From positions 3,810,001 through 3,842,000 of the forward strand of contig NC_011979.1 in assembly GCF_000022265.1 (NCBI RefSeq): a stretch of DNA of 32,000 nucleotides. Reading direction: 5' to 3'. Numbering within the stretch: position 1 is the first letter of the stretch; the number at the start of each line of letters is the position of its first letter. Shown one piece after another: positions 260-32,000 of this stretch. This stretch comes from Geotalea daltonii FRC-32 (GTDB taxonomy: Bacteria; Desulfobacterota; Desulfuromonadia; Geobacterales; Geobacteraceae). The notes beneath the pieces were generated by a model. It was given only the letters and a program-made list of their open reading frames with translations. It was not told the DNA's origin and did not search any database. A program made the position numbers and the translations under genes.

Positions 260-1159
260 CTATAATCTTATCAGGTCCTCATGTTCCTCCTCATGGGGAT
301 TGATATGAATCATCACGTCTCCCACGTTGGAAAAACTGTCGAAAACCAGCTTTTTAACCTGCGTGGCAATGGCATGGGACTGCTTGACCGTCATCTCCGG
401 GTCCATATCCAGCTTGAGGTCGATGATCACATATTGGCCGGAGCGACGACCCTTTATCTCATGCACATGTTCGACACCCTCGACATCTTCAGCCAGTGCC
501 GTCACAGCGTGAAGCATCTCCTGTGGCGGCAGGCCGTCCATGAGATCATGGGCCGCACCGCTGAAGGTCTGGTAGCCGATATGGAAAATAAAGAATGAGG
601 TAAGACCGGCAGCCAGGGGATCCATGACCTTGAAGCCGAAAAAGGCGCCGGTAACCCCCACCAGTGTGGCAATGGAGGTGATGGCATCTTTGCGATGATC
701 TTTGGCGATGGCCATGACAGCAGGACTCCCCAGATCACCTCCGACCCTGAGGGAAAAGCGGCACAGCCATTCCTTGATCAGTATGGTAACGAAGGCAGCC
801 AGCACGGCTATTAACTGGGGCTCCTCGTACACTCCGGCAGAGATAGTTTTCACAGCTTTATAGAGAATGCCGAAACCGGTGATAAAGATGACCAGCGAAA
901 CGAGAATTGCAGATATGCTCTCAGCCCGGCCGTGACCGTAGGGATGTTTTTCATCGAAAGGCTTTCGGCCGATCCTGAGGGCTATGATCGTTGTCAATAT
1001 GGCAATGAAATCGCAGGCGCTCTCCACACCGTCGGCAAAAACCGCTTCAGAACCACCGAAATGCCCTGCCGCGATCTTCATTATCATCAACACCGCATTC
1101 ATCCAGAAGCCAAGCCTGATGACCCGGTCGGCCTGATTGAAACGTTCGGCCCTTTGCAC
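260..1159 (-). CDS. Cation diffusion facilitator (CDF) family metal efflux transporter
   Basis: 299 aa with an N-terminal multi-TM region, the CDF signature HPYGHGRAE, and a C-terminal cytoplasmic domain (VHEIKGRRSG..IDLKLDMD). GTG start at 1159 overlaps the recJ stop (TAGTG). Confidence 0.9.
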   Translation of the reverse strand: MQRAERFNQADRVIRLGFWMNAVLMIMKIAAGHFGGSEAVFADGVESACDFIAILTTIIALRIGRKPFDEKHPYGHGRAESISAILVSLVIFITGFGILYKAVKTISAGVYEEPQLIAVLAAFVTILIKEWLCRFSLRVGGDLGSPAVMAIAKDHRKDAITSIATLVGVTGAFFGFKVMDPLAAGLTSFFIFHIGYQTFSGAAHDLMDGLPPQEMLHAVTALAEDVEGVEHVHEIKGRRSGQYVIIDLKLDMDPEMTVKQSHAIATQVKKLVFDSFSNVGDVMIHINPHEEEHEDLIRL

Positions 1160-2883: not shown

Positions 2884-2909
2884 CGATTTTTCCCAGGGAA
2901 ACTTTCCAT

Positions 2910-2937
2910 AAAAAAAGACCCCGCCGAGGCGGGGTCT
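2910..2937 (-). terminator. Rho-independent terminator after the secDF-TPR operon
   Basis: GC-rich hairpin AGACCCCGC/GCGGGGTCT (2916-2937). It is followed on the minus strand by a 7-nt U-run (A-run 2910-2916 on plus) and lies 18 nt downstream of the TPR gene stop at 2955. Confidence 0.7.
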
Positions 2938-2954
2938 TTTACTGAATCGGCATC

Positions 2955-3518
2955 TTACTTCGAACCTGATTTGAGCTGGTCCATTTGCATTTTTATCTGT
3001 TGGGCCGTCGGACTTGTTGAATCCAGTTCAAGATAACGGGTCCAGGCCTTGACCGCCTTGTCCGGCTGTTTCAGATCGAAGGCATAAACGACCCCCAGAT
3101 TGTAGAGACTCTGCAGGTGTTTGGGATCCACCTGCTGTGCCTTCTCAAAGTTGGCAATGGCCTTGTCGAACCAGCCGATTTTCCGGTACATGATACCCTG
3201 GTCTGTCAGAACGTTGGTGTTGGCGGGATCAAGTTCCAAAGCCTTGGCATAGGCATCGACGGACTTTTTTGCCTGATCGGTGTCGAAATAATCGTTGCCC
3301 AGCTGGATCCATGCCTGGAGATTCTTCGGGTCGGCGGCAACAATTTTTTCCGCTTCGGTTATTCTCTGTTGGTAATCGGTTGGAGAACCGGCTCCCTGCG
3401 GCACTCCGCCGGTAACAGGTACAGTCTCTTTTTTTGAGCTGACACTGAAGATGAGGAACCCGCCGAGAAGACCGATGATCAATGCTACTGCTATTCCCAG
3501 AATGCTTTCCTTACTCAT
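2955..3518 (-). CDS. Membrane-anchored TPR repeat protein
   Basis: One N-terminal TM helix (ILGIAVALIIGLLGGFLIF) is followed by about 3-4 TPR-like repeats (AWIQLGNDYF.., VLTDQGIMYRKIGWFDKAIANFEKA.., LYNLGVVYA..). The ORF track starts at TTG 3524, but ATG 3518 has GGAGG (3528-3532, minus) 9 nt upstream, so 3518 is preferred. Confidence 0.8.
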   Translation of the reverse strand: MSKESILGIAVALIIGLLGGFLIFSVSSKKETVPVTGGVPQGAGSPTDYQQRITEAEKIVAADPKNLQAWIQLGNDYFDTDQAKKSVDAYAKALELDPANTNVLTDQGIMYRKIGWFDKAIANFEKAQQVDPKHLQSLYNLGVVYAFDLKQPDKAVKAWTRYLELDSTSPTAQQIKMQMDQLKSGSK

Positions 3519-3533
3519 GCTCAAGAACCTCCT

Positions 3534-4433
3534 TTAGGCTTTAACTTGACCGGGGGTCTTTTCCCACAGAGCAACTATGGGGCTGGCGACAAAGATGGAG
3601 GAATAGGTAGCAACAACAACCCCCACAACCAAAGCAAATGCGAAGTCATGGATAACTTCCCCGCCGAACAGCAGCAGGGAAATGGCCGCCAGAAATGTCG
3701 TCAGCGAGGTAATTATGGTTCGAGACATAACCTCATTGATACTCTGGTTGAAGATCGTGAACATGTGCTCTTTCAAGTTCTTATGCATGTTTTCCCTGAT
3801 TCGGTCAAAAACGACAACCGTGTCGGTGAGGGAATAGCCGGCAATGGTTAGTGCTGCGGTTACAAGCAGCAGATTCACCTCTTTGTTAAGGACAAAGAAG
3901 ATGGCAAAGATTGCCAGCACGTCATGCATGGTGGCAACGACGGCGCCGATGCCGAATTTGTAGTCAAAGCGCCAGGCTATGTAAAGAATTATGCCCAGCA
4001 TGGATATGGCCACGGCAACAAGCGTGTCCTTGCGCAGTTTGTCCCCTATTGACGGTCCGATCTCAGTGGAACTTTCAACAGCAAAAGGGTTGGCGGCGAA
4101 GTCCTTTTTCAGGGCTTCCTGGACTGAATCAGCCACATTCCCCGTACTTTTCCGCATTTTGATCAGCAGTTTGTTGCCTTCCTTTATTTCCTGCAACTCG
4201 GCATTTTCTATCCCGTTTTTAGCCAGGCTGCTTCTGACGCTTTCCATGGTAAAGGGCGCAGAAAACTTCAGCTGCATGGCGGTGCCGCCGGAAAAATCGA
4301 TCCCCATGTTGGCAGCTCCCCTGGCAATCTGGATGATGCCGATGAGGCCGATAATGGCAATTATGGCGGAAATGGCAAAGGAGATTTTTCTCATGCCGAT
4401 GAAATCGATTTTTGTCTTACCGATGAATTCCAT
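3534..4433 (-). CDS. secF: Protein translocase subunit SecF
   Basis: 299 aa with the GIDFSGGT motif and a six-TM SecD/SecF C-terminal domain, immediately downstream of secD. Confidence 0.95.
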   Translation of the reverse strand: MEFIGKTKIDFIGMRKISFAISAIIAIIGLIGIIQIARGAANMGIDFSGGTAMQLKFSAPFTMESVRSSLAKNGIENAELQEIKEGNKLLIKMRKSTGNVADSVQEALKKDFAANPFAVESSTEIGPSIGDKLRKDTLVAVAISMLGIILYIAWRFDYKFGIGAVVATMHDVLAIFAIFFVLNKEVNLLLVTAALTIAGYSLTDTVVVFDRIRENMHKNLKEHMFTIFNQSINEVMSRTIITSLTTFLAAISLLLFGGEVIHDFAFALVVGVVVATYSSIFVASPIVALWEKTPGQVKA

Positions 4434-4445
4434 AGTTCATTCCCC

Positions 4446-6044
4446 CTATATACTCAGTCTTTTCACATTCTTGCGCTCGAGGAAAAGATCGAAGATCACC
4501 CTGGTTGCCAGGAGCGAAGTGAAGAGGTTTATGATGATACCAAGGCTCAGGGAAACGGCGAATCCCTTGACCGGGCCGGTGCCGAACTGGAAAAGCACGG
4601 CTGCCGTGATCAGCGTAGTGACATGGGAATCCATGACGGTCAGGAATGCTTTGTCATAGCCGGCATCCAGCGCAGCCTTTGCCGTCTTGCCCAACCGCAG
4701 CTCCTCTCTGATCCTTTCGAAGATGAGAACGTTCGAGTCCACTGACATGCCGACCAGCAGAACGATAGCGGCAATGCCGGGTAACGTCAGTGTAGCACCC
4801 AGAGCAGCAAGTGCCCCCATCAGATAAACGATGTTCAGGACCATCCCCATATTGGCGACAAGCCCGGAGAGTTTATAGTAGACAGCCATGAAACAGATGA
4901 CAAGAGCCACACCGATGAGACCGGCGATCAACCCTTTGTTGATGGAATCCTGACCGAGGGAAGGACCAACGGTCACATTCTGGATGATCTTGACCGGTGC
5001 AGGCAGTGATCCGGCACGAAGGACTATTCCCAGGTCGGAGGCTTCCTTCTCTGTAAAGGAACCGGAGATCTGGGCACTCCCCCCCGAGATGCGCTCGCGA
5101 ATCACCGGAGCGGAATAGATATTGTTGTCGAGAACAATGGCAAAGCGCTTGTTCACATTGGCTGCAGTTACCTGGTCAAAAAGCCTGGCGCCGGTTGAGT
5201 TGAATTCTATGGCCACATAGGGCTGGTTGTATTGGGAGTCGATCCGCACCTGGGCATCGGTAAGAAGGTCTCCCGTTATCATTGCCTTTCTCTTCACCAC
5301 CAGAGGAGTCTCGGACACTGCTCCGGTGGCAGGATCTGTCTTCTTCTCGTAAAGAATTTCATCATCTTCGGGGATCGTGGAAGGGGTTGCCGTAACGGCG
5401 TTGACGTTTTCATCCACCAGCTTGAATTCAAGACGTGCGGTCTTGCCGATCAGCTCGATGGCCCGCTTCGGGTCCTTGATGCCGGGAAGCTGCACGACCA
5501 CATGATTTATCCCTTCACGCTGAATAACCGGCTCTGAAACGCCGAACTGGTCGATCCTGTTGCGGATGGTTTCCAGCGCCTGCTGTACAGCCTTGTCCTT
5601 CCTGACCTGAGCCTCTTTCTCGTTTATTCTCAGCTGCAGATTTACAAAGCCCCCCTCATCAAACAGGGGGAGCAGTTCAAGGTCCGGGTACTTTTTCTTT
5701 ATCAGCTTCTGCACGGTGTCGGCAGAACCACGGTCATAAAGCACAAGCTGTACCCGGTCGGAACCGATCCTGCCCACCCGCTTGAAGCGGATATTCTGGG
5801 CATTGAGACTGTCCTCAAGGTCGGTGGAGATCAGATCCAGCGAGCCTTCGACCGCTTTCTGGGTCTCCACTTCCATAACCAGGTGGCTCCCCCCCTGCAG
5901 GTCAAGGCCCAGGTGGATCTTATCCTTGGGCAGAACTCCCCACCAGGACGGCAGCTTGGGAACCAGCGTCGGGGTCATGTAGAGAAAAGAAATCAAAAGG
6001 AAGCCAACAATCAGGCTGATTCGCCAGGTAAAACCCTTGCTCAT
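4446..6044 (-). CDS. secD: Protein translocase subunit SecD
   Basis: About 532 aa. N-terminal TM, large periplasmic domain with GLDLQGG, and a C-terminal SecDF membrane domain. The track start GTG 6062 is probably too long, because ATG 6044 (MSKGFTW..) has AAGGAG (6053-6058, minus) 8 nt upstream. Confidence 0.95.
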   Translation of the reverse strand: MSKGFTWRISLIVGFLLISFLYMTPTLVPKLPSWWGVLPKDKIHLGLDLQGGSHLVMEVETQKAVEGSLDLISTDLEDSLNAQNIRFKRVGRIGSDRVQLVLYDRGSADTVQKLIKKKYPDLELLPLFDEGGFVNLQLRINEKEAQVRKDKAVQQALETIRNRIDQFGVSEPVIQREGINHVVVQLPGIKDPKRAIELIGKTARLEFKLVDENVNAVTATPSTIPEDDEILYEKKTDPATGAVSETPLVVKRKAMITGDLLTDAQVRIDSQYNQPYVAIEFNSTGARLFDQVTAANVNKRFAIVLDNNIYSAPVIRERISGGSAQISGSFTEKEASDLGIVLRAGSLPAPVKIIQNVTVGPSLGQDSINKGLIAGLIGVALVICFMAVYYKLSGLVANMGMVLNIVYLMGALAALGATLTLPGIAAIVLLVGMSVDSNVLIFERIREELRLGKTAKAALDAGYDKAFLTVMDSHVTTLITAAVLFQFGTGPVKGFAVSLSLGIIINLFTSLLATRVIFDLFLERKNVKRLSI

Positions 6045-6071
6045 GGATGAAGCTCCTTTCACTTATCAAGA

Positions 6072-6392
6072 TCAGTCTTTTTTCAGGCTGGCGATGAAAC
6101 CTTTGTTTATTTTGACATTTACCCCGGTGGCCACTTCAAGGGTAACGACATTTTCATCGATGGCAGTCACCTTGCCGTGCATGCCGCCGGCGGTGATTAC
6201 CTGATCTCCCTTTTTAAGGGAATCAAGCAGAGTGCGGTGTTCCTTTGCTTTTTTCTGCTGTGGGCGGATGAGGAGAAAATAAAAAATGGCAAACATGAAA
6301 ATCAGCGGCACAAGGTTCATCAGAGCAGACTGCCCCCCACCGGCAGCCTGTCCACCGGCAGGTGTTCCCATCGCAAAAGCCAAACCAAACAT
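6072..6392 (-). CDS. yajC: Preprotein translocase subunit YajC
   Basis: 106 aa with a single TM (LVPLIFMFAIFYFLLIRPQQKK) and the typical GD.V.T.GG..G.V tail. GGAGG lies 7 nt upstream of the ATG. Position between tgt and secD is conserved. Confidence 0.9.
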   Translation of the reverse strand: MFGLAFAMGTPAGGQAAGGGQSALMNLVPLIFMFAIFYFLLIRPQQKKAKEHRTLLDSLKKGDQVITAGGMHGKVTAIDENVVTLEVATGVNVKINKGFIASLKKD

Positions 6393-6457
6393 TGTCGAAC
6401 CTCCATTTATAATTTTGTGTAAGCTTCCTGTTCCCTTTTTTCAGGCATATAAATACA

Positions 6458-7585
<1,128 letters not shown>

Positions 7586-7593
7586 TTAAACCT

Positions 7594-8625
7594 TCAATAG
7601 ATAAACATCGCATCACCGTAGCTGAAAAAGCGGAACTTTCTCCTGACCGCCTCGGCGTATGCGTTGAAAAGCCTGTCTCGACCTGCAAATGCTGAAACGA
7701 GCATCAGCAGGGTTGATTCCGGCAGATGGAAGTTAGTGATCAGGGCATCCACAGTCTTGAATGCATAACCGGGAACGATGAAAATATCCGCCTCCCCCTC
7801 TTTTGCATCAAGGCTGCCATCTTCTGCAGCGGCGTGTTCCAGAGCCCTGGTGGTTGTCGTACCAAGGGCAATCACACGCTTCCCCGCTTTTTTCCTGTCA
7901 GTGACGGCCTTTGCCGTTGTCTCCGGTATCCGGTAGTATTCCCGGTGCATCCGGTGTTCGCTCAGATCCTTCACCCTGACAGGCATAAATGTGCCAAGCC
8001 CCACGTGCAGGGTCAGAGGCAGGATATCGACCCCCCGTGCCCGAATCTTCTGCAAAAGGCTTTCAGTGAAATGCAGTCCGGCTGTCGGGGCGGCCACAGC
8101 TCCCCGCTCCCGGGCAAATACCGTCTGGTATCTTTCCCCATCGATTACATTTGCCGGTCGGTGGATGTAAGGGGGGAGCGGCATGCTGCCGATCATCTCA
8201 AGGCGGTCGAGAAAGCCTTCTTCAGGAGAAAACGAGACAATCCATGTATCATGCTCGCTCCGCTCCACGATCCGGGCCGTAACCCCTTCCGATAGAAGGA
8301 TCAGCGATCCGGGCGCGGGTGATTTCGAGCACTTTATCAGACATTGCCACACCTGTCCTGCTTCGTCCCTGCGCCTGACAAGGAACACCTCCGCCTTACC
8401 GCCTGTTTCCTTCCGGCCCAGCAGCCTGGCCGGTATCACTTTCGTGTCGTTTATCACCAACAGGTCGCCGGCAACAAAATATTCTGCAATATCGGCCACA
8501 ACGCCTTCACCGATCTCACCGCTTTTCCTGTCGAGGGTCATCAGGCGAGCCGATTCCCTTCGGTGTGCCGGCTCCTGCGCTATCAGCTCCGGCGGGAGAT
8601 GATAATTGAAGTCTTTAAGCTGCAT
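7594..8625 (-). CDS. queA: S-adenosylmethionine:tRNA ribosyltransferase-isomerase
   Basis: 343 aa. N-terminus [19 protein letters not shown], plus the TAGLHFT and FFSYGDAM motifs typical of QueA. Confidence 0.95.
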
Positions 8626-8627
8626 GT

Positions 8628-9785
8628 TCAGTCTGCCGTTATCTTTACCAGCCTGGTGCCTGGATAATAATAGGAAAGAATCTCCCGGTAATCAAAACCG
8701 TCACCGGCCCTCTGTTTTGCCCCCCATTGGCAAAGCCCGACCCCATGCCCGTAACCGACCCCGGCAAAGGTTATACCATCAGCGGAAGAACGGATGTCGA
8801 AATTGGTACTTTTTATGGTGCTGTAGCCGATTGCCTTACGAAAATTGGCGGCACCGATGGTGAGACGGCCCTTTGCCGAAATTACGGCCACATCTTGCAA
8901 CCGGCCGCTCCTGTTATGACGCCCGGTTTTGATTTCCCTCAGGCCTGCAGCCTGATAGCCGGCATTTTTCAGTAAAGATTCCAGCTTTTTCAAAGAAATG
9001 GTCTGCTCCCACTTTACGGATGGTGCGGCAAGACAGTACTTGCAATCAACACCGGGAAGATAAGGCACCACACTTCCCCAGACATTTTCGGCGGCCTCCG
9101 TATGTCCACCGCAACTGGAATGGTAGAATGCCTGAATGACGGCGCCGTCATGGGTAAGCACCTGGCCGGCAGTCTCCTTGACTCCGCGGGCCGCACGGCT
9201 GTCCTCGATGTCGCTACCTGCGTAGACCTGATCCATGACGCTGGATTCCAGATGGTAAAGGGCCCCTTTTCGGGCAGCCTTCTGGTATATGGCATAGGAC
9301 CGGGCAATTACTGCCTGTGCTTTTACGGCCTCTATGGGCCATTGGGAGGAAATCTCGCAATTGATCAGGCCGACCAGATAGTCTTCAAGGGGCAGTTCAT
9401 CGACCACGAGCAATCCCTTGTCGGCAGGAAGAATTTCCAGAACCCCACGATAACCCTTGCCGTTAATGAGCAGGAAGGCAGGTGCGGTTGCCTTCAACCT
9501 GCCTACCGTTCTGTTGTTTACAGAGATACCGTCTCTGACCCTTTTGACATGGATCGGCGTATCGAGCCGCAAAGGCTGACCATCGCCATCCATGAGCAAA
9601 ATACCGTTACCTTCCAGAGAAAAGCTCTCAGCTCCCTTAAAAACCGCCACTCTTATAATTTCAGGCCTTGTGTCGACACCAAGGACAGCAGCAGGGAAAA
9701 GAACCAGCAGGATTATGATACAGAAAACTCTCAAGAAGTTACCTTTATTACGGCCTTTAAACTGGACGATAAGACCATAGAACAC
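8628..9785 (-). CDS. SpoIID/LytB-domain protein (secreted cell-wall amidase enhancer/lytic transglycosylase-like)
   Basis: 385 aa with a hydrophobic signal-like N-terminus ([16 protein letters not shown]) and the SpoIID signature [10 protein letters not shown]. The stop lies 2 nt from the queA start. The start codon is uncertain: GTG 9785 in the track, with an internal TTG also possible. Confidence 0.85.
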
Positions 9786-9838
9786 CGGCCAAAGTCAATA
9801 ATTTTATCATTCAAATTAGGCGTTTTTTACTTGACGCC

Positions 9839-9855
9839 TTGGCAAGCGAATTGCT
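9839..9855 (+). promoter_or_regulatory. Candidate sigma-54 (RpoN) promoter facing the HD-GYP gene
   Basis: TTGGCAAGCGAATTGCT matches TGGCAC-N5-TTGCW. GG is at 9841-9842 and GC at 9853-9854, exactly 12 nt apart, with one mismatch in the -24 element. Confidence 0.45.
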
Positions 9856-10142
9856 TTACTCATTAATGAAATTCTTCGCCGCGGGAAAGCAGATACCCTT
9901 CGCCGGGAGGTCAGGTGGCTGCTATTGTGTTTCATATTTGCGGTAATCGGAAGTGATCGCCATAGATGCCCTGCAGCTACAGAAGGAGAGAGCACCCGGC
10001 GGAGATTGCAAAATTTGAATGCATTAACAATATCGATCGTTTTGCACAATAAACAGTGCCAATGAAGCAGAATTAACCGCCAAATCACTCAAAACCTTGG
10101 GCAAAATGAGAATGTATGTCCAGCAAGCAGAATACAGGATAG

Positions 10143-12212
10143 ATGATTAATTCTCTTAAGATAAAAATAATAGGGCTTGTTACTGTTACCATCATAGGCA
10201 TCGTCTCGCTTGTCTCCTATGTTACCTACAGACAGCAGAAGGAAATGCTCTATGACATGGCAACTTACAACACCAATGTGCTCAACGAGACGGTGAAAAA
10301 CAGCATCAGCGATGCCATGCGTTCTGGCCGGTCCCAGGAAATAAGTGCCATTTTCAGCCGCCTCCGCTCCAAGGAATTCATCTCATCCCTGCGTATCGTC
10401 GATGAAACGGGCAAGATTCTCATTTCAGCAGATCAGACGGAAATAGGACATTTTCTACCCGAATACGAACGACACGAGCTAAAAACAAATTTTCAGCAAA
10501 AATTCACCCTTTCCGAGAATCGAAGGGTCTTCGATTCTTTCGCCCGTATTCCCAATAATCCTCTCTGCCATAGATGTCACAGTCCGAGCATCAAAACTCT
10601 TGGATTCTTGGAAACTGAACTGTCCATGGGTTATATGGAAAGGTTCCTTGAGAAAGAAAAAAGAACTGCTGCCATTTCTACGGTACTGATCATAGGCTTG
10701 ATCATTATTATGGTTTCGGTATTTCTCATTTTCTATGTGGATAAACCGATCAGGAAATTGATTTCAACCATGGAAGAGGTAGAAAAAGGAAACTTCGACC
10801 ACAGGACCATAATCAGCAGCAGCAATGAAATGCGCATTCTTTCCCAGAGCTTCAATCGAATGGTCGAAAGATTCCGTGACATGATGGAGGCCAATATCGT
10901 CCATGAGAGGGAGCTGGCCCGGGCACAGGAAAAGCTGAGCCACCACCGCGAAACCCACCTGATGAATCAAAAACTGGAAGAACAGATCAAGGAAATCGAA
11001 ACGCTGAATGTCAACCTTGAAGAGCGGATCGAGGAAATCGAAGAAGCAAATTACAAGATTGCCGATCTGGCGGGTGAACTGGAAGACAAGAATACGACCC
11101 TGGAAAATGCCGTTTCCAAGCTATCCACTCTTTACAAGGTAGGCCTGGCCATAAATTCCACCATGGAATCGGAGAGCCTTTTCAAGCTGATTGTGAAAAC
11201 CACTATGGATACACTACGTGCCCAGATCGGCTACATCATTCTTTGGGACCAGGAACAGCATGAGATGCTGATTACAACTCTGATTGGACATGACGGGCTT
11301 TCTCCTTCGGGTACGGTGTTACCCCGGAAACAGTCCAGCGTCTCCAGCTGGGTTATCGAAAACGGCAAGCCGCTGCTCATTGCCGATATCAATCAAGCTC
11401 CGGAGTTTGACCGATTCAGTGCCATGGGTTATGAGCGCAAGACCCTGATCTGCGCTCCTCTCATCGTAAAAAACGAGATTATCGGTACCATTACCGTCGT
11501 CAACAAGATCGACAACTCCACCTACAATCATGAGGAACTGGAACTATTTTCCACCATCGCCGCTCAGGCAAGCATCGCCATCAAAAACGCAAAGCTTTAT
11601 GACGAGCAGCAAAAGACCTATCTGAACACCATTCAGGCCCTTGTATCGGCCATTGAAGCCAGCGACAGCTATACCCGTGGCCATTCCGAGCGGGTTACCT
11701 ACTATAGCCTGGAACTGGCCAAGAAACTGGAGCTGCCCCAGGATCGTCTCAAGATCATCGAAAGGGCAGCGATTCTCCACGATATAGGCAAGATAGGCAT
11801 TGACCTGACCTTGCTCCACAAGGAAGGAAGGCTGACTGCGGAGGATATCAACGATCTTCAGCAGCACCCCACCATCGGCATGAAGATCCTCGAGCCGATA
11901 GAGTTTCTTCAGGATGTAAGGCTTTGCATCGGTCAACACCATGAACGCTACGATGGCCAGGGTTATCCCAACTCCATTCCCGCATCCGGATTGCTCCTTG
12001 AATCAAAAATTCTCGCCATAGCCGACGCCTTTGATGCAATGACCTCAGACCGCCCCTACCGTAAGGCTCTACCGGTCGAGGTGGCCATCAATGAGTTGTA
12101 CAGCAACGCCGGCACCCAGTTCGACCCCGAACTTGTACCTCACTTTGTGGACCTTCTCAAGGATTCCCAATTTCAGAGCAGCAGGGTAGGCAGAGCCACT
12201 GCCATGGCGTGA
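10143..12212 (+). CDS. Membrane-bound signalling protein: periplasmic CXXCH sensor loop - HAMP - coiled coil - GAF - HD-GYP (predicted c-di-GMP phosphodiesterase)
   Basis: 689 aa. TM helices at about aa 8-29 and 175-198 bracket a ~145-aa loop containing CHRCH (10566-10580). HAMP-like segment KPIRKLISTMEEVEKGNF... A long heptad-rich linker follows, then a GAF-like region, then the HD-GYP signatures HDIGKIGI and HHERYDGQGYP. Confidence 0.9.
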   Translation: MINSLKIKIIGLVTVTIIGIVSLVSYVTYRQQKEMLYDMATYNTNVLNETVKNSISDAMRSGRSQEISAIFSRLRSKEFISSLRIVDETGKILISADQTEIGHFLPEYERHELKTNFQQKFTLSENRRVFDSFARIPNNPLCHRCHSPSIKTLGFLETELSMGYMERFLEKEKRTAAISTVLIIGLIIIMVSVFLIFYVDKPIRKLISTMEEVEKGNFDHRTIISSSNEMRILSQSFNRMVERFRDMMEANIVHERELARAQEKLSHHRETHLMNQKLEEQIKEIETLNVNLEERIEEIEEANYKIADLAGELEDKNTTLENAVSKLSTLYKVGLAINSTMESESLFKLIVKTTMDTLRAQIGYIILWDQEQHEMLITTLIGHDGLSPSGTVLPRKQSSVSSWVIENGKPLLIADINQAPEFDRFSAMGYERKTLICAPLIVKNEIIGTITVVNKIDNSTYNHEELELFSTIAAQASIAIKNAKLYDEQQKTYLNTIQALVSAIEASDSYTRGHSERVTYYSLELAKKLELPQDRLKIIERAAILHDIGKIGIDLTLLHKEGRLTAEDINDLQQHPTIGMKILEPIEFLQDVRLCIGQHHERYDGQGYPNSIPASGLLLESKILAIADAFDAMTSDRPYRKALPVEVAINELYSNAGTQFDPELVPHFVDLLKDSQFQSSRVGRATAMA

Positions 12213-24145: not shown

Positions 24146-27100
24146 CTACTGCATAACCCTGATCAGATCGACCCCTTCGAAGACCACAGAGCCGACCTTG
24201 CCGGTAACATGCACCGGAACCCTGTCACCGCTCGGCAGCAGGTTAATCACCTCGCTCCGCCTGAACTTCACCATCAGATCTTTGATGCCGTCCTTGTCGC
24301 AATCGCCGACGGCGTAGGGACGAAGCTCTGCCGATATTGCCCCTTCAAGCCTGATGGATGCAATGTCGATGTCTGAAGGATTGTAGCCCTCCGGCAGTTC
24401 GATGCGCACGGTGACCCAGGTGCCGTTGCTCTTGGGATTGAGGGTATCGGGGTCGAAGTCGATGGTGGCGCCTATGCTTGTCACCGGCAAATGCACGGTG
24501 AAGCTCGCCATATGGGACCAGGCACCGTAGAGGGCACCGTCGAATGCCCTGGCACGCCACTGGTATGCGGTGTTGTCGGTAAGGGGTGTATTCAGGGTAA
24601 CGGAGGTCATCCCTGAGGCGTCCTGGGGGATGCCTGTGACTGTCGCTGCCAGTGTCGGGCCCGCATAGATCTCGAAGTCGTAGCCTTGTATGGAGCTGTC
24701 GGGATCTGCGGCATTGGCAATGGTCAGGGTCGGTGTCGGCGTTGAAACACTGCTCCCTTCGGCAGGCAAGGCCGGTTTAGGTGCGCCGGGGGCATCGTTG
24801 GCGGTGTTGACCATGAAGCTCATCGCTTGAGTCCATTTATCGCTGGTGAGGTAACCATCGAAGGCGCGCGCCCGCCAGTAATAGGTCTGGTTCTCCGTCA
24901 GTGTCACCGGAACCGTCCAACTGGTGACTGCGGCTGTCTCAATGACACCGGCTGCCCGGCTGACGAGGCTGGTCAAGGCAGCATCGGCATAGACCTCAAA
25001 CTCGTAGGTCAGTGGATCATGGTCAAGGTCGGCGGCATTGTGCACCGACAAGGTCGGGCTGTATTGATTCACCCCTGCCCCATCGGAGGGATTGGCCGGT
25101 GTGGGAGTCGTGGGTGGATCGTTGACGGTATTGGCAAAGAAGCTGATGGTTTCCGACCAGGTGCTTTCCGCTGCCCCGTCACTTGCCTTGGCGCGAAGGT
25201 AATAACGGGTGTTGTCCGAAAGACCGCTCAGATTCCAGGTGGTGCTCCCCTCCCCTTGGGGAATGCTGCCTGAGCGGACGATATTAGGCGAATCGAAGGT
25301 CGGTACCGTATCCGCTTCGAAGAAATAGGTAATGACAGACGAATCGGGATCGGTGCTGTTGGTGACGACCACATGGGTTGTCAAAGCGGCCACAGTCGAG
25401 CCGTTGAGGGGTGCCGTGATGACCGGTGTCGTCGGGGCATCGTTGGCGGTGTTGACCTGGAAGCGCACCGTTTGCGACCAGGGTCCTTCCATCTGCCAGT
25501 CGTCGGCCTGGGCTCGCCAATGGTACCAGCCGTTCTCCTGGAGGGTCACAGGTACGGTCCAGGAGGTGGTCGCTTCTCCGGAAGCAACGCCGGGGGTTGA
25601 GGCTATGATGTTGGTGAACTCGGGATCCAGTGCGACGGCGAAGTTGTAGGTGAGGCTGGTGCTGTCGGGGTCTGAAGAGTTGTTGATGGTCAGCGTTGGA
25701 CTTGACAGTGCCACAGCGGTACCGTCTGCAGGGGCGGAAACGGTCGGCGCTGTCGGGGGATCGTTGATGGTGTTGACCCGGAAGGAGACGGCAGGCATCC
25801 ACGGGCCGTACAGTTTGCCGTCAAAGGCACGGGAGCGCCAGTAGTATGTCTGGTTCTCAATCAGAGCTGCCGGCGTCCAGATGGTCATGTTTGCGGTTTC
25901 CGGTGCCTGTCCGGAGGCGGCAAGGTTGGTCAGGCCGCTGTCGGTGTAGACCTCGAATTGATAGGTGAGCCGGTCGTCGTTGGGATCGGCGGCATTGCTG
26001 ACGGTAAGCTGCGGCGTCAGGGTTTCCACGTCGGCTCCACTAATTGGGCTTACCAGCGCCGGGGCCGAAGGTGCGCCTTCCACGCGGAAATAGGTGCCGG
26101 CGAGGGTTTCCTCTACCCCGTCGATGGTTGCTCGCAGGATAACCAGGTAGTCCTTGGCGCCGTAGTTCTGGGTATCGATTTGGCCGGTTCCTGAATGGAT
26201 TTGCCCCATGGCGAGGCTGGCCGTGTCGGGGATGGGGTTATAGGTGGTCTGGTCGCTTATGTTGATCGTCTGCACTGACAGGGGGATGTTGACAAGGTCC
26301 GTGTTCCCGATGTTGGTAACGGTGTATGAAACGGCTACCGGTTCTCCGGTCAGGATGCTCTGCTTGTCGAGGGTTACCTGTCCTTTCAGGAGAGCGGTGG
26401 GCTTCGTGATGCTGCCAATGACCAGATTACAGGTGGATTTGGTGATAACGGTGCCGGTGTTGTTCAGGATCTGCATTGTTACCAGGTAGGTTGCCGCCGG
26501 GTTGGCTCCCACGTTCCAGTATTTATTGATGGTGGTGGTTTGGCCCTGGTTAAGCTGGGGGATAGAAGTCGTATCGGTGTAGAGGGCCTGCCCCTGGCTG
26601 TTGGTGATGGTTACCAGCAAGGAGAGGTTCTCCATGTAGGTGTTTGCTGTAAGCGTTCCTGTCAGATTTGCCTGATCATTGGGGTTGTAGGCGATCTTGT
26701 CGGTGACTATTTTGCCGGTAACGCTGGCGGCTATTGGCGGTGCGGTGTACGCCACGGTTTTGGTGAGGGTCCGGCTCAGGTCGCCGGTGATGGTGAAGGT
26801 GTAGGTAGTGTCGGCTGCGATCTGTTGAGTGTACTGGACCGATCTTGTCTCTCCGGCAGGGATGGTTATTGTCTCTGCCGTGGTATCGAATGATTTGGCA
26901 ACGGCAATGACCGCTTCTATCTTGCCGCTGTTGGTGAGGACAAGGCTCACCTGGAACGGGTCGGCTCCTGCGCTGTCGGGGGCGGTGAGTGCCGCAGTGA
27001 CCATGGGGCTTGACGCTTCATATTGTTCGGTGATGTCGGCAATGATGACACTATTCTGGGTTACCGCTCCTTTGAGCGTATAAATGCCGTCGCTGCCTGC

Positions 27101-30100
27101 TGTGGTGGTAAAGCTGAACGGACGGCTGCCGTTGGCCGCAATGTCGAAGGTGTCAGTATAGAGGGTTGCCCCTTGGTTATCCTTCACCTGCAGGGCAAGG
27201 GCTGCTGCCAGGCTGGTGATGTTCCTGACTTCGCCGCTTATGGTCACTGTTTCGCCCGGTTTGTAGATCTTCTTGTCGGGTGAGAGAAGTAGCTGGAAGT
27301 TCCCCTGTTCGATGTAGAAGGGGTATTCGGCGGAGGCAACGGCTTGTCCGGTGCTGGAGGTGAGGGTGCCCTGGAAGTAGAGCTTGCCCAGAACACCCAG
27401 GGTGCCGATGGTTTTATTCAGGTCAGCGACGGCTACTGGAGCAAGATCGACGGGCACGTCCGTCTGCCAGAGCACTTCGCCCGGGTCGGCCAGGTAGGTG
27501 ACGGTGAGATCGTTGAGCAGTGGCGTTACATTGGTATCGGTTGTAGCCAGCGTGGCCTCCACCTCGATCCACCGGGCGGCGGGATTAGTGATTGGTGAAC
27601 CGCTTGCGGTGATGTAGTCGCTCCAGATGGCGGTGGTGAGGCCGGCTTCGGTGTCGGCGGTGCGGGTGCGGAATTTGATGGAGGTGCCGGTGGGTTGGGT
27701 GGTGTTAAAATTTATTTTCCCCCAACTGGTATTCGCCGCGCCAGAGTCTTGCTTTAAAGTCACTACTCCTGCACTGGCATATACACCGTTTTCTGTATAA
27801 AAAGCATCTACATCAACAGATGCTGACTCATCAAGTAAGGTATCAGCATTCGTAGTTAAAATTCTGATAGTTGCTGGTCCGGTTTCCATGCCAGATTTCA
27901 AATGATATGTGCTCCACATAGCACCATCCCAGTACTCTGCGTAGGCAGAGGTTCCCGTTCTTCGAAGCTTGAAATAGCCAGAAACCCAGTTACTCGGGGG
28001 TACACTAGAAGCCCACCAGTTACTATTAATATAGGAGTTAGCCTGCAGTTGAGGAAGTTTTGATGGATAAATGTTTGTCTCATAAAGCCAAAAACCTGAT
28101 GAAGGACCCGTCTTGGCCGTGAGGTAATGGCCTATATCCCCTTCCGGATGCGATCTAACGACGGTGAATTTAGCGTTTTTATACTTTTCAATGGCTGCAA
28201 AATCACCTGGCAGGGAAGCTTTTAAAAAAACAGAAGTCGCGCCATTACCATCACTTTTTTGATGCATAAGACCGTTAGCTTCAGTTGGCAAGTAAACTCC
28301 AGCGGATCTCCATCTATCCTCATTCAGCACTCCATCGTCAAAATTATCATTCAGTGGTAGTAGTCTAGCCGAGTCCACTGTCTGGTTTACTGTCATGATC
28401 CGGCCGGAGCTGATTTTGAAATTATCCCAATGAGTTTCAACAGGGTTATTATACCCATTGTTGGTGGTCCACAGTCTTACATTTAAGGGGCCATCCCAAA
28501 TATTTGTTGACCATAGTTGTTTCCAGGCACCATTTTCCCAGCAATATGCAATTGCTGTAGTCCCATTTCTAGTAATTCGAAGCTTACCGCTGGAATCGGT
28601 TGTACTAAGATTAGGGCTATGATTCCATGAACTTCCATTCCAATAATCGGCACTATAAACATTCTGGCCATAGGATATTTTGCGTTCTACACGAAACTCA
28701 CGATTTGCTGCCTCGATCCTGAGTAAGGCCCAGAACTCACCAGAAGAAGGGTTTACCAAGCTAAAATCAACCTGAACATCGAAATCACCTTGTAATTGAG
28801 AAGAAGCGTTTCCCACAAGACTCGCATATCCCGCCCCCGGACCTGCCGATTGTATTAAAACACCGGTGCTTTCTTGTTGTTTACTGGTGCCATAGTTGTC
28901 TTCTACCCATTTACCTGTGTCAATACGATCATCGTCAAAATCATCATCCGGAATAATCCAGTCATTGACCCCGTAGGTGTCCACCCCATTACGCACACCG
29001 GTCTGGAAATCGGCTTGGGTAATCCAGGTCTTCTGCTTGTAGCTCCCCGGCCCGGTGACCACCTGCAGATGCACATTCCCCCCCTGCAAGGGGGTGCCGG
29101 TGTTGGTTATTGCGCCGAGGCCGGTGATGTTCTCGGTTGCCAGATAGACCTCTTTATCTGTTTGCATCTGAAGGCTGGCTTTTATCCCAGCGATGCTGAG
29201 TGCATAGGGAACAATTTTTTCTACAGTTGTTTTACCATCCTTGAATTGGACGTTGAGGGTATAGGTACCATCCACAGCACCGACCGGAATGGGCAGGCCA
29301 AGGGGAATAGAAGACCCAGCTACTGCAATCTCGGTAGCTGATTTTTCGGCAATGAGTGTTGCCTTTGCATCATAAAGGCTGGCTTGGTAGTCAACTGGTG
29401 TATCAATGCCGCCGGTATTTGCAATTACCACTGTAATTGTATTTCCGGCGCTATAGGCGGTCTTGGCCACTGTTGAGGTCAAGGATGATTCCGGAACAGC
29501 CCAGAAGGCTTTTTCCGTAACCTCTGATCCGGAAGGAAGGCGAAGAGTAACGGTGGCAGGATGTAGACCGGCATTTACCGTTTCCGGAACTGGGAAACTG
29601 TAGATGACTGCAGTGCCAGAAGCCGAAATACCTGCAGGAAGAAATTTGGTTTCAGTATAGGTTGCATCCGGGATGGATACGGTGGCAGTTAATCCGGTAT
29701 CGAGGCTGAACTTACCGGTGTTGGTTATGACAACGGTGAGATTGCCTGCTTCCCTGATGCGATAGGTGCTTTTATCGAAGGAAGCATTAATGTCAACGGT
29801 ATTGGTCAGCACCACTTCAACCGGCTTGATCGTTCTGGTTTCATCGCTCAGGATATAGGACAGGGTATAGGTACCCAATTTCAGAACTGCAGTACTCACA
29901 TTATAGGTAAGCATCTTGCTCTCAGCCAATGCAAGGCTCAAGGCCTGGGAGGAGCTATATGCCACCTGCCCATCCGGGTCTTTCAGGGTGACGGCCAGGA
30001 CGCCTGACGATACGGGAATGGTACCGGTATTGGTCAGGTTGAATGTCACGGTATTGGTGGTGGAGAAGGTGGTCGGCAATGTTGGGCTTATGGATACTTC

Positions 30101-32000
30101 ACTAACGGCAGAACCGAAGCTGTTCGAAGCGGTTTGCATGATATTACCGGCCTCGGAGTATAGCTCGGCCTGGATCAGATAATTTCCAGACACTGCATTT
30201 TGCGGCATGACAAAGCTGACAGTCTGTGCAACATCGCCATCTGCCGCTAAACTCAGTGAAACTGTCGTATCGAATACTTTAGCGACATAGGGATCTAGTA
30301 CCCTTACATGGAGGAGTGGCGAGAGGTCTAACGACTGCTTGTTGTGAATGTTTACCGTAACAGGGACGGTTTCTCCAGACTTGTAAAGCGCCTGGTCAAC
30401 TTTGACAGTCATATCGGCAGAGGGGGTAATCATCATGGCAAGAGCGGGACTGAAGATGAACGTCTCACCAGGAGCGAGGGTACTGCCGATGCGGGCACTG
30501 AAATACCCTTCAGCACCTGCGGAAATGGTTACATCTCCAGGAGTTATGTCAGTAATTGCATAGGTTCCGCCTGCTAACGTCGCTGCTTTCAATGTTGTAT
30601 TTCCGGTTGCTGTCTCCATTACGGCACCGGCAAATGGTGCATCGGAGCCGGCATTCCTCACCACGCCCTGCACGGATGCTGAAACAGTGCCGGTGGATAG
30701 GACAATTGTTCCGGCATTGGTAGTCGCTCCAGCGGTAATGTAGGTCTTCAAGGTACGTGGAGTATAACCATCCAGGGCAACCGTTATCTGCTGCATTCCG
30801 TAATGAATGCCATTCAGGGCAAACGTACCGGTGCTGTTCGTCACAGTGCTAACTTTAGGATCGTTGGTCAAGGACAAGGCTACACCTGCAAGAGGTAGAG
30901 AAGTCACCGCATCAACCACCGTCCCGCTAATACCTCCGTTTGTCACCAATGGGGTGAGAGCAATATCCATGGTCTGGAGCCATGGCTGCTTCCCAACGGT
31001 GTAGGATTTGCCCACATATCCGACAGAGAAGGCCTTGACGGTTATCTCGGCATCGTTGATGTCGGCTATGGCATAGGTACCGGCAAAGTCGGTGCGGGAG
31101 GTCAGGTTGCCCGGTTGAACCATAACTTCCGCCCCCGGAATGGGCAACCCGCTCTTTGCATCGGTCACCTTGCCGGTCAGGGTCATCAAGAAAGACATCT
31201 CCAGGCGGATCGTGCCCAAATCTGTGGTAGTGCCGGCAGAAATCACCACCCGGAAGGTATGGCTGGCGAAACCATGCATACCCACGACCACCTGGTAGGT
31301 CCCCGGCTGCAGGTTGGCGATAGTAAAGTACCCGCCCCCTTCCGGTTCGACCGAAACCGACGTCCCTCCGGAGACGATCACCTGCACCCCAGTCTCTTCC
31401 GGCAGATGCCCGATGGGCCTACCCCAGAAGCTGTCCACCACTCGGCCCACCAGGGTGCCTGTTGTAGCCGTTGGTGGGGAGGTGCTCAAACGCGGAGAAA
31501 AGGTAAGCGTCGTTCGGGCGTAGACAGTGCCGGTGGAGGTCAAGGCTTGATAGCCTGCCTTCTCGGCAGTGATAGTGACATCGCCAGGGGTGACATAGGT
31601 AAAGGTGAAGCCTCCGTCGGCTCCGGTTGTGGCAGTGCCGCTCCAGGCCCCTGATACTGTGATTGCCACACCAGCCAGCGGCTTACCTGTGGGGTCGGTC
31701 ACGGTGCCGGCGATGGTACCGGTGGAATAAGCGGAAAGCAGGGAGATGGTTCCGAGGCTAGAGGTTGCCCCTGCAACAGCGGTTGTGGATGCGCTGTTTG
31801 CGGCATAGCCAGAGAGTGTAAAGGTCAGCTTCTGCGTACCTGTTGGTACATCGGCCAACGCAAAGCTGCCGGTGGCGTCGGTGGTTGCGGCAAAGAGGGT
31901 GTTGCCGTCAATCGCCACCGCTACGCCGCTCACCGGCCTCTTTGTCACCGCATCGATCACTGTGCCGGTAATTGTAGCACCAAGCGGCGGCGCCGGAGGC
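24146..32000 (-). CDS. Giant modular extracellular/cell-surface protein (adhesin- or S-layer-associated-like); 5' end lies outside the window
   Basis: The ORF is open from TAG (24146-24148) to the window edge. The track start at 31960 is an internal GTG, because the 13 upstream codons (..PPAPPLGATITGT) are in frame with no stop. At least 2617 aa are visible. The protein is made entirely of beta-sandwich-type modules (see findings), is Thr/Ala/Gly/Val/Ser-rich, and I count only three Cys. Confidence 0.85.
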   Translation of the reverse strand, partial: PPAPPLGATITGTVIDAVTKRPVSGVAVAIDGNTLFAATTDATGSFALADVPTGTQKLTFTLSGYAANSASTTAVAGATSSLGTISLLSAYSTGTIAGTVTDPTGKPLAGVAITVSGAWSGTATTGADGGFTFTYVTPGDVTITAEKAGYQALTSTGTVYARTTLTFSPRLSTSPPTATTGTLVGRVVDSFWGRPIGHLPEETGVQVIVSGGTSVSVEPEGGGYFTIANLQPGTYQVVVGMHGFASHTFRVVISAGTTTDLGTIRLEMSFLMTLTGKVTDAKSGLPIPGAEVMVQPGNLTSRTDFAGTYAIADINDAEITVKAFSVGYVGKSYTVGKQPWLQTMDIALTPLVTNGGISGTVVDAVTSLPLAGVALSLTNDPKVSTVTNSTGTFALNGIHYGMQQITVALDGYTPRTLKTYITAGATTNAGTIVLSTGTVSASVQGVVRNAGSDAPFAGAVMETATGNTTLKAATLAGGTYAITDITPGDVTISAGAEGYFSARIGSTLAPGETFIFSPALAMMITPSADMTVKVDQALYKSGETVPVTVNIHNKQSLDLSPLLHVRVLDPYVAKVFDTTVSLSLAADGDVAQTVSFVMPQNAVSGNYLIQAELYSEAGNIMQTASNSFGSAVSEVSISPTLPTTFSTTNTVTFNLTNTGTIPVSSGVLAVTLKDPDGQVAYSSSQALSLALAESKMLTYNVSTAVLKLGTYTLSYILSDETRTIKPVEVVLTNTVDINASFDKSTYRIREAGNLTVVITNTGKFSLDTGLTATVSIPDATYTETKFLPAGISASGTAVIYSFPVPETVNAGLHPATVTLRLPSGSEVTEKAFWAVPESSLTSTVAKTAYSAGNTITVVIANTGGIDTPVDYQASLYDAKATLIAEKSATEIAVAGSSIPLGLPIPVGAVDGTYTLNVQFKDGKTTVEKIVPYALSIAGIKASLQMQTDKEVYLATENITGLGAITNTGTPLQGGNVHLQVVTGPGSYKQKTWITQADFQTGVRNGVDTYGVNDWIIPDDDFDDDRIDTGKWVEDNYGTSKQQESTGVLIQSAGPGAGYASLVGNASSQLQGDFDVQVDFSLVNPSSGEFWALLRIEAANREFRVERKISYGQNVYSADYWNGSSWNHSPNLSTTDSSGKLRITRNGTTAIAYCWENGAWKQLWSTNIWDGPLNVRLWTTNNGYNNPVETHWDNFKISSGRIMTVNQTVDSARLLPLNDNFDDGVLNEDRWRSAGVYLPTEANGLMHQKSDGNGATSVFLKASLPGDFAAIEKYKNAKFTVVRSHPEGDIGHYLTAKTGPSSGFWLYETNIYPSKLPQLQANSYINSNWWASSVPPSNWVSGYFKLRRTGTSAYAEYWDGAMWSTYHLKSGMETGPATIRILTTNADTLLDESASVDVDAFYTENGVYASAGVVTLKQDSGAANTSWGKINFNTTQPTGTSIKFRTRTADTEAGLTTAIWSDYITASGSPITNPAARWIEVEATLATTDTNVTPLLNDLTVTYLADPGEVLWQTDVPVDLAPVAVADLNKTIGTLGVLGKLYFQGTLTSSTGQAVASAEYPFYIEQGNFQLLLSPDKKIYKPGETVTISGEVRNITSLAAALALQVKDNQGATLYTDTFDIAANGSRPFSFTTTAGSDGIYTLKGAVTQNSVIIADITEQYEASSPMVTAALTAPDSAGADPFQVSLVLTNSGKIEAVIAVAKSFDTTAETITIPAGETRSVQYTQQIAADTTYTFTITGDLSRTLTKTVAYTAPPIAASVTGKIVTDKIAYNPNDQANLTGTLTANTYMENLSLLVTITNSQGQALYTDTTSIPQLNQGQTTTINKYWNVGANPAATYLVTMQILNNTGTVITKSTCNLVIGSITKPTALLKGQVTLDKQSILTGEPVAVSYTVTNIGNTDLVNIPLSVQTINISDQTTYNPIPDTASLAMGQIHSGTGQIDTQNYGAKDYLVILRATIDGVEETLAGTYFRVEGAPSAPALVSPISGADVETLTPQLTVSNAADPNDDRLTYQFEVYTDSGLTNLAASGQAPETANMTIWTPAALIENQTYYWRSRAFDGKLYGPWMPAVSFRVNTINDPPTAPTVSAPADGTAVALSSPTLTINNSSDPDSTSLTYNFAVALDPEFTNIIASTPGVASGEATTSWTVPVTLQENGWYHWRAQADDWQMEGPWSQTVRFQVNTANDAPTTPVITAPLNGSTVAALTTHVVVTNSTDPDSSVITYFFEADTVPTFDSPNIVRSGSIPQGEGSTTWNLSGLSDNTRYYLRAKASDGAAESTWSETISFFANTVNDPPTTPTPANPSDGAGVNQYSPTLSVHNAADLDHDPLTYEFEVYADAALTSLVSRAAGVIETAAVTSWTVPVTLTENQTYYWRARAFDGYLTSDKWTQAMSFMVNTANDAPGAPKPALPAEGSSVSTPTPTLTIANAADPDSSIQGYDFEIYAGPTLAATVTGIPQDASGMTSVTLNTPLTDNTAYQWRARAFDGALYGAWSHMASFTVHLPVTSIGATIDFDPDTLNPKSNGTWVTVRIELPEGYNPSDIDIASIRLEGAISAELRPYAVGDCDKDGIKDLMVKFRRSEVINLLPSGDRVPVHVTGKVGSVVFEGVDLIRVMQ
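24485..26074 (-). repeat. Five tandem ~100-108-aa FN3-like coding repeats of the giant ORF
   Basis: Unit lengths are 108, 107, 107, 108 and 100 aa. The shared skeleton is P..G..V....PTL.V.N..DPD...LTY.FE.....F/L........W.V...L.EN..YYWRA.A.DG....W.....F.VNT.ND.P..P. Confidence 0.7.
27700..28965 (-). other. Low-GC cassette inside the giant ORF encoding two tandem ConA/LamG-like jelly-roll domains
   Basis: Hand counts of 60-nt lines give 35% (28021), 35% (28621), 40% (27841) and 45% (28441). Flanking lines give 57% (27361) and 62% (25441). The translation contains two paralogous ~190-aa units opening DDFDDDRIDTGKW and NDNFDDGVLNEDRW. Confidence 0.7.
30440..32000 (-). repeat. At least 6 tandem carboxypeptidase-regulatory-like (CarboxypepD_reg/transthyretin-like) coding repeats of the giant ORF
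   Basis: Units of about 80-90 aa recur with openings such as ITGTVIDAVTKRPVSGVAV, IAGTVTDPTGKPLAGVAI, LTGKVTDAKSGLPIPGAEV, ISGTVVDAVTSLPLAGVAL and VQGVVRNAGSDAPFAGAVM. Each is followed by a ..D..G.F.. and ..G.Y.. pattern. Boundaries are approximate. Confidence 0.6.

Follow-up and report, generated by a model that had tools for sequence, protein, structure and literature searches.

The stretch analysed here, called the window, comprises 32,000 nucleotides of Geotalea daltonii FRC-32 (contig NC_011979.1, positions 3,810,001 to 3,842,000), and all positions below are counted from its first nucleotide. Its minus strand carries a gene for a giant secreted or surface protein (24146..32000), of which 2617 codons are visible, and within this gene lies a segment of low GC content that encodes two predicted ConA-like domains, hereafter the cassette. 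As listed, the open reading frame (ORF) spans 24146..31960, with a GTG start at 31960. Because positions 31961-32000 contain no in-frame stop, the gene runs past the end of the window, and the codons upstream of the GTG, encoding PPAPPLGATITGT, align with P0022, the orthologue with the closest backbone, at residues about 300-312. Judging from P0022 and from the orthologue at locus L002, whose upstream ORF matches Prenyltrans and SQHop_cyclase_C, about 310 N-terminal residues, including a signal peptide and prenyltransferase/SQHop-cyclase-like repeats, would lie outside the window. The full-length orthologues P0022 (2925 aa) and L010 (at least 2748 aa) have their C-terminus in common with the window protein. 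Pfam matches in the giant protein include CarboxypepD_reg (six stretches), MG2 and Ig- or FN3-like domains, and the domain order in the orthologues runs from the signal peptide through prenyltransferase-like repeats, CarboxypepD_reg, MG2/Ig-like repeats, the cassette and Ig-like domains to five FN3-like repeats (107 aa). This architecture is that of an extracellular giant protein.

The window averages ~54% GC. Along the giant gene, GC drops from 0.57-0.63 in the sequence around the cassette to 0.40-0.47 between about 27700 and 29000, and in sliding windows the GC content at third codon positions (GC3) falls to 0.27-0.47 in the segment versus 0.70-0.77 around it, with the reading frame unbroken. 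Change points were placed by maximum likelihood on third codon positions, with the 2-log-likelihood interval as support. The 5′ change point lies at 28957 (support 28885-28975), exactly between GVNDW and IIPDDDF, where unit 1, the first of the two domains, starts; the 3′ change point lies at 27707 (support 27691-27754), ~30 codons into a conserved downstream beta-sandwich. An abrupt in-frame drop at ~27700-28965, described in an initial annotation made from the sequence alone, was thus confirmed. GC3 is 0.36 in 28957-27707, compared with 0.72-0.82 in the adjoining blocks. A three-segment fit (GC3 0.55, 0.36 and 0.75) gained 39.6 log-likelihood units over a model with no change point, and binary segmentation of the visible gene returned five blocks with GC3 of 0.69, 0.50, 0.82, 0.36 and 0.72. 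The block of 0.82 is a 60-codon spacer (28958..29137, minus strand) that ends exactly at the 5′ change point: it has the highest GC3 of the gene, abuts the block with the lowest and coincides with the most conserved upstream anchor of the protein (…KTWITQADFQTGVRNGVDTYGVNDW). The anchor is 63-78% identical to that of 9 orthologues, with W48, D53, G57, R59 and GVDT as invariant columns (alignment A2).

Normal variation among genes does not account for the dip. Across 564 windows of 100 codons from the 17 other genes of the window, GC3 had a mean of 0.665, a standard deviation of 0.077 and a minimum of 0.42, and the cassette value of 0.364 over 415 codons is far outside this local variance. From its amino acids and the codon usage of the window, the cassette is predicted to have a GC of 0.548 and a GC3 of 0.666, well above the observed 0.438 and 0.364. 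The dip is therefore mostly synonymous, the part played by amino-acid composition is minor, and we rejected such a constraint, the alternative named in the initial annotation, as its cause.

The cassette consists of two units joined by a linker, all on the minus strand. Unit 1 (28412..28960; IIPDDDFDDDRIDTGKW … HWDNFKI; GC3 0.34), supported by Pfam and Foldseek matches, and unit 2 (27800..28363; LLPLNDNFDDGVLNEDRW … SVDVDAF; GC3 0.36) are both predicted to be ConA-like jelly rolls. The orthologue alignment places between them a conserved linker of 25 residues (28337..28411; SSGRIMTVNQTVDSARLLPLNDNFD; GC3 0.52). Unit 2 is followed by the conserved beta-sandwich mentioned above (27410..27799, minus strand; GVVTLKQDSG…IKFRTRTADTEAGL…ARWIEVEATL…TPLLNDLTVTY), which is 58-86% identical to its orthologues and for which no Pfam or PDB family was matched. 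The proposal of the initial annotation that the two units are paralogous was borne out: the motif pairs it quoted are all present in the translation, and BLASTP aligns unit 1 with unit 2 at 33% identity over 45 residues (E = 8e-6). In a 24-unit alignment, in which D6, W18, G125 and W146 are invariant, their identity is ~21%. Because the units share so little identity and both are present in all orthologues, their relationship is a distant one and their duplication ancient, older than the family, rather than linked to a recent acquisition as had been supposed.

The units had also been assigned to ConA-like domains of the LamG or Laminin_G_3 type. The fold held up, and the family assignment did not. 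Neither Laminin_G_3 nor LamG gave a Pfam match at E <= 0.1 with the whole protein or the cassette, or at E <= 0.01 with the 24 units. The sole Pfam match of the cassette was DUF1583_C (PF07622; 30.2 bits against a cut-off of 22.9, E = 3.3e-7), and this match was partial, covering profile positions 138-247 of 256. At E <= 0.01, DUF1583_C was matched by 9 of the 24 units and DUF1349 by one of them; a unit profile run against PDB sequences gave no significant match. An AlphaFold2 model of moderate confidence, built from a 10-sequence orthologue alignment, has both units as beta-sandwiches, with predicted local distance difference test (pLDDT) values of 73-89 for unit 1 (model residues about 125-254) and 60-87 for unit 2 (about 285-460); from the single sequence, the cassette reached a pLDDT of 32. 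Foldseek with the alignment-based model returned 245 PDB matches at E <= 0.001, and all 50 of the matches listed have a ConA-like domain (GH43 C-terminal domains, laminin LG domains, galectins and tetanus Hc). Target-normalised template modelling (TM) scores to the single-domain DUF1349 structures 3o12 and 3mep were 0.72-0.73, with E about 1e-6 to 1e-7. Through this predicted model, a ConA-like lectin/glucanase fold is supported at the superfamily/fold level; to call the units lectins in the functional sense would be a guess.

We infer that the units form a nested insertion in a framing beta-sandwich, from the conserved motifs and from a 458-aa secreted protein (P0004, locus L001; GCA_024449465.1, JAANSR012889441.1, 1970-3346) in which the same two framing motifs enclose a single unit. 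The N- and C-terminal framing pieces, joined as one query, matched nothing in Pfam or PDB, and the N-terminal piece had a pLDDT below 40. Searches for a repeat of the cassette within the gene, and for tandem repeats, RNA families and opposite-strand genes in the cassette, found none. We also considered a diversity-generating retroelement target and rejected it, as the gene contains no template repeat and the 17 neighbouring ORFs no reverse-transcriptase family.

To place the cassette among its relatives, we relied on several searches. An exhaustive HMMER search of representative proteins found 624 proteins with such units, and word-indexed homologue searches found 3-4 proteins each time, even with a 10-sequence profile. 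A profile-guided scan of GTDB species representatives yielded 15 loci (the window protein alone as query yielded none), and a metagenome scan yielded 9 more. The main set comprises 21 distinct loci including the window (20 without it); GC3 averages and their Wilcoxon test were computed on 17 loci, and two further loci, L030 and L031, stand outside the main set. The best matches are giant proteins of 2374-3353 aa with the architecture of the window protein, and they share its anchors both upstream (...TW.TQ.DFQ.GVRNGVDTYGVND) and downstream (...IKFRTRTA...W.E.EA.L...TP.L). The hosts of the 15 genome loci are Geobacteraceae, Desulfuromonadaceae or 'deltaproteobacterial' in 13 cases, and the other two loci come from one metagenome-assembled genome (MAG) labelled Nitrospirota. 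One orthologue is an intact ORF of at least 2748 aa in a cultured isolate, Geomonas anaerohicana Red421 (L010; NZ_JAEMHL010000015.1, 50-8293). All 23 other gene versions analysed, from genomes of Geobacteraceae and Desulfuromonadaceae and from metagenomes, have the two-unit cassette at the same position, between the same anchors.

At this shared position, the cassette itself is highly variable. Sliding identity between the window protein and 9 orthologues is 58-86% in the 60 flanking residues on each side versus 15-50% in the cassette, with unit 1 of P0005 (53-76%) as an exception. Among the 21 distinct loci, median pairwise identity is 56% for the flanks, 40% for unit 1 and 30% for unit 2, and the linker is 68-96% identical among orthologues, compared with 20-66% for the units. 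Identities correlate at 0.22 between flanks and unit 1, at 0.35 between flanks and unit 2, and at 0.37 between the two units; between allele types, synonymous sites are saturated. Within a conserved scaffold, the cassette forms a hypervariable core, and its very divergent allele types do not follow the phylogeny of the backbone.

Pairs of loci with mismatched parts showed how alleles are combined. L006 and L008 are 78% identical in the flanks, 71% in unit 1 and 35% in unit 2; for L017 and L018, the corresponding values are 80, 43 and 73%, for L005 and L009 64, 77 and 29%, and for the window and L002 63, 66 and 29%. P0005 and P0014 are 52% identical in unit 2 and 32% in unit 1. Between L004 and L020, the flank DNA is 92-100% identical (third positions 0.83-1.0) and the cassettes are 40-68% identical with synonymous sites saturated; the transition zone extends over ~60 codons on each side of the cassette. 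Between L006 and L008, synonymous-position similarity is 0.67-0.94 in unit 1 versus 0.3-0.67 in the flanks, and unit 2 is unrelated. Units 1 and 2 assort independently, and near-identical backbones can hold unrelated cassettes. L004/L020, L006/L008 and the mismatches between flanks and units indicate replacement of whole cassettes as well as of single units, and a swap among related genomes, one of the checks suggested in the initial annotation, was found in L004/L020, L006/L008 and L005/L009. Judging from the alignments, alleles would be replaced through homologous recombination that crosses over in the conserved flanks and in the linker, the latter being the probable crossover site for the separate exchange of units. 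Together, we consider it likely that the 1.25-kb low-GC segment is an allelic cassette, hypervariable and exchanged by recombination, in an otherwise conserved giant surface protein of Geobacteraceae and Desulfuromonadaceae. In the window protein, unit 1 has a single orthologue of the same allele type (L002/P0005, 66% identity), and unit 2 is a singleton type among the loci compared; its closest counterpart is the fragment P0011 (47%), which has a GC3 of 0.45.

The dip in GC3 is likewise shared by many relatives. Averaged over the 17 loci, GC3 is 0.66 far upstream, 0.71 near upstream, 0.48 in unit 1, 0.60 in the linker, 0.48 in unit 2, 0.60 near downstream and 0.63 far downstream (flanks versus cassette, Wilcoxon p = 2e-4), and the linker lies above the units in most loci. 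A dip of at least 0.15 was found in 13 of the 21 distinct loci (12 of 20 without the window) and also in L030 and L031; in Geobacter UBA9976 the dip is small. Low GC at the same site in related high-GC genomes, which the initial annotation had named as an observation that would speak against acquisition, is thus present in most lineages. GC3 of the units is 0.44-0.49 in every class of column conservation, compared with 0.63-0.67 for the flanks. Because poorly conserved flank columns keep a high GC3 (about 0.63-0.68), low constraint alone is not the cause, and we rejected a rule by which low conservation gives low GC3. Site-level selection for translational accuracy was rejected as well, since unit GC3 is equal in conserved and variable columns. 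The dip, which is synonymous and independent of column conservation, is regional, neither a site-level effect nor a mere correlate of low constraint.

A functional design of codon usage, in which AT-ending rare codons slow translation for domain folding or for export of the giant protein, would fit a block that matches domain boundaries and recurs in many orthologues. We regard it as very unlikely, because the dip is missing from the intact Geomonas orthologue and is weak or absent in 8 of the 21 loci of the main set, because it extends uniformly over more than 400 codons where pause sites would be expected at domain junctions, and because the conserved linker has a higher GC3 than the units. 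As most of the relatives are metagenome assemblies, the pattern could in principle reflect chimeras that place reads of a low-GC organism in a high-GC gene. However, more than 13 independent assemblies show it, which differ in sample and assembler and include contigs of 0.8-2.3 Mb, the frame is intact across both junctions, and the junctions lie in sequence conserved throughout the family, so that the chance of an assembly artefact is next to nil.

Another explanation is the one proposed in the initial annotation, a single recent horizontal acquisition in the window genome with duplication before or after it. The strength of the dip and the coincidence of its edges with domain boundaries would suit such an event, and like classical low-GC horizontal islands the cassette shows an abrupt drop in GC and GC3 relative to its host. 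Unlike these islands, it is in frame and domain-sized and is present in all relatives, and its dip recurs in many lineages. Both units occupy the same site in every orthologue examined, most of which also have the dip, and the units are only about 21-33% identical to each other. Atypical composition is accordingly the one mark of a horizontal island that the cassette bears; it is not absent from relatives, and no identifiable donor or mobility machinery accompanies it. Around the gene, we found no mobility genes, no direct repeats at the cassette edges and no tRNA-type junctions, and its neighbours in the window are housekeeping genes (recJ, secDF, tgt, queA, recN, glgP, pfk and others). A single recent acquisition is therefore refuted in the form proposed, since relatives have both the cassette and its dip, and we regard it as extremely unlikely. 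Low GC is a recurrent property of the cassette across lineages, not the scar of one recent import into the window genome, and recent transfer of a domain from a low-GC donor into the gene, the headline of the initial annotation, is not what the data show. A methodological warning follows: since the dip is found at one position in many lineages, recent horizontal transfer is not shown by a sharp in-frame drop in GC alone.

Several observations weigh against our reading of the cassette and its low GC. The dip is below 0.05 in four of the 21 loci and 0.09-0.14 in four more, and it is lacking in Geomonas anaerohicana, where the cassette has a GC3 of 0.71-0.80 and the flanks 0.75-0.82. The high GC3 of poorly conserved flank columns belongs here too. 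Within one unit-2 type, GC3 is 0.27 in L002 versus 0.65 in L025, and within one such type it is 0.39 in L004 versus 0.71 in L010; this spread is not predicted by a purely intrinsic regime, and import followed by amelioration fits it equally well. Finally, exchange is seen in relatives of the window lineage and not in that lineage itself, whose closest strains were not found.

An alternative is repeated in-frame import from an unsampled low-GC reservoir, in which alleles would evolve in organisms or elements of about 40-47% GC, with old imports ameliorating to host GC. Both composition boundaries are sharp, GC3 is low region-wide whatever the conservation of a site, and one allele type can be low in GC3 in some hosts and host-like in others, as if imports differed in age. 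In addition, the contig of L001, with its single related unit between the same two motifs, has 47% GC and a uniform GC3 of about 0.45-0.54. Nevertheless, we judge repeated import unlikely on balance. A uniformly low-GC orthologue that could have served as donor was not found, as all 23 other versions have high-GC flanks. For homologous recombination, the flanks of donor and recipient must match in their DNA, and in a donor of 42% GC such a match would be largely missing. Outside the family, the closest protein with such units, P0006 (locus L029), has a uniform GC3 of 0.63, and phage or plasmid homologues of the cassette were not found. Unit 1 of the window and that of L002, which belong to one type, are 66% identical, compared with 62-64% for their flanks, and both have a GC3 of 0.34-0.39; low GC3 at flank-like divergence points to persistence rather than recent arrival. 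Because of the missing low-GC orthologue, the missing phage or plasmid homologues and the persistence of unit 1 in the window and L002, we tentatively prefer decay of GC in situ as the cause of the low GC, rating it somewhat above repeated import.

Diversifying or frequency-dependent selection would keep many alleles in circulation, because the units would be the exposed part of the protein that binds a ligand or is itself recognised, with a glycan or mineral-surface ligand or a phage or predator receptor as candidates. In a model of in-situ decay, allele types would have diverged too far for recombination within the units, and every class of allele would be rare. GC-favouring forces, whether GC-biased gene conversion or selection at synonymous sites, would then have little effect there, and universal AT-biased mutation would lower the GC3 of the units region-wide, as the recombining flanks stay GC-rich. 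Recombination and GC have been reported to be positively associated across bacteria, independent of codon selection (PMC4450053). More tentatively, the cassette may represent a long-lived balanced polymorphism with an inner part that homologous recombination does not reach. Its recurrent, region-wide GC3 deficit beside recombining, GC-rich flanks would then be the footprint of absent GC-biased gene conversion, or of selection that is weakened where allele classes are rare; we regard this as possible but less likely than not. If true, the gene would offer an internally controlled natural test of what holds bacterial GC above mutational equilibrium, with Geomonas as the contrast case. More generally, setting the GC3 of the cassette against that of the flanks in the same gene could help to test ideas about biased gene conversion in bacteria.

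Hypervariable modules between conserved flanks are well known from the D2/D3 region of flagellin, the target-recognition domains of the type I restriction subunit HsdS and the receptor-binding tips of phages. The cassette resembles all three in its conserved scaffold, its discrete divergent alleles uncoupled from backbone phylogeny and its conserved crossover points, and it resembles HsdS further in having two variable modules that assort independently on either side of a conserved spacer. Here, in contrast, the variable part consists of two ConA-like units, the protein around them is a giant with more than 2,900 residues and the host clade is Geobacteraceae; the likeness is one of evolutionary behaviour, not homology. 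DUF1583_C (PF07622), DUF1349 (PF07081; 3o12 and 3mep) and the ConA-like superfamily match the cassette units in fold, with a weak match in sequence, and both DUF families are without established function. The cassette also recalls replacement flexible genomic or metagenomic islands (PMC3458243, PMC2800850), in which exposed structures that differ between strains, giant proteins and O-antigen clusters among them, occupy a fixed locus. With 40.3% and 41.3% GC, the lipopolysaccharide O-chain islands belong to the lower-GC entries in the genomic-island table of PMC3458243, where phage evasion is also proposed as the driver. Replacement islands swap whole genes or clusters, whereas here one or two domains are exchanged within one reading frame and the remaining gene is conserved. 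The behaviour is thus of a well-known kind; what distinguishes it is domain-level exchange in frame, independent assortment of the units and a GC3 deficit that recurs across lineages.

Geobacteraceae and Desulfuromonadaceae live by contact with minerals, electrodes and partner cells. The present analysis identifies an undescribed family of giant surface proteins in Geobacteraceae and Desulfuromonadaceae, on which a literature search found nothing, and locates its variable part. A lectin-like module that differs between strains is a candidate for what sets attachment specificity or susceptibility to phages or predators. From its evolutionary behaviour, and by analogy with variable surface structures and giant proteins of other bacteria, the cassette is a probable determinant of specificity or evasion, and as the most variable part of the protein it remains a plausible specificity determinant, in line with the initial annotation. 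The intact, dip-free orthologue in cultured Geomonas anaerohicana Red421 provides both a testable system and a contrast case.

Further observations concern individual relatives. The MAG labelled Nitrospirota, unlike all other hosts, is MFD00905.bin.2.216, and it has two paralogous copies of the giant gene (L003/L019 and L014, on contigs 762 and 8104). Their cassettes are 99-100% identical and their flanks 93%, which points to a recent duplication, or to conversion of the cassette within the genome. The L002 orthologue (ERZ27236866 k141_978694, 840-8734) is called as three consecutive ORFs (1226, 958 and 462 aa), and L003 is likewise split; these may be either frameshifted pseudogenes or assembly errors. 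Directly downstream of the L001 gene lies an ORF that, by eye only, has the look of a YD/RHS-repeat protein. P0006, encoded at L029 (SRR28298059_7287, 3001-8790), has 1929 aa and matches the cassette in six stretches, corresponding to multiple DUF1583-type units. The neighbours of its gene are unannotated genes and an Amidase_3 gene, and the context may be prophage or tail-fibre-like.

Within the giant gene, direct-repeat families at 24698-26024 (3-4 copies, ~321 nt spacing) correspond to tandem FN3-like modules of ~107 residues (…NAADPD..LTY.FEVY…YYWRARA.DG…), which are found in some orthologues only. Upstream of the cassette, segmentation delimited a stretch of intermediate GC3 (0.50) with Ig/MG2-like repeats at 29138..30967 (minus strand). 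The initial annotation had let intermediate GC continue from the cassette to ~30400; the stretch instead reaches 30967 and is set off from the cassette by the GC-rich 60-codon spacer. In its aligned part (columns 160-360), the window has a GC3 of 0.35-0.49, compared with a mean over 17 loci of 0.59-0.67. As far as the alignment goes, the depression seems confined to the window lineage, and it could be a separate recombination import. Elsewhere in the window, the sole other stretch with a GC3 below 0.5 lies in a HAMP-GAF-HD(-GYP) signalling gene (10143-12212), where GC3 is ~0.42 over codons 80-200 (about 10320-10750), within a GC trough at 9600-10800; it is probably the extracytoplasmic sensor region of the encoded protein.

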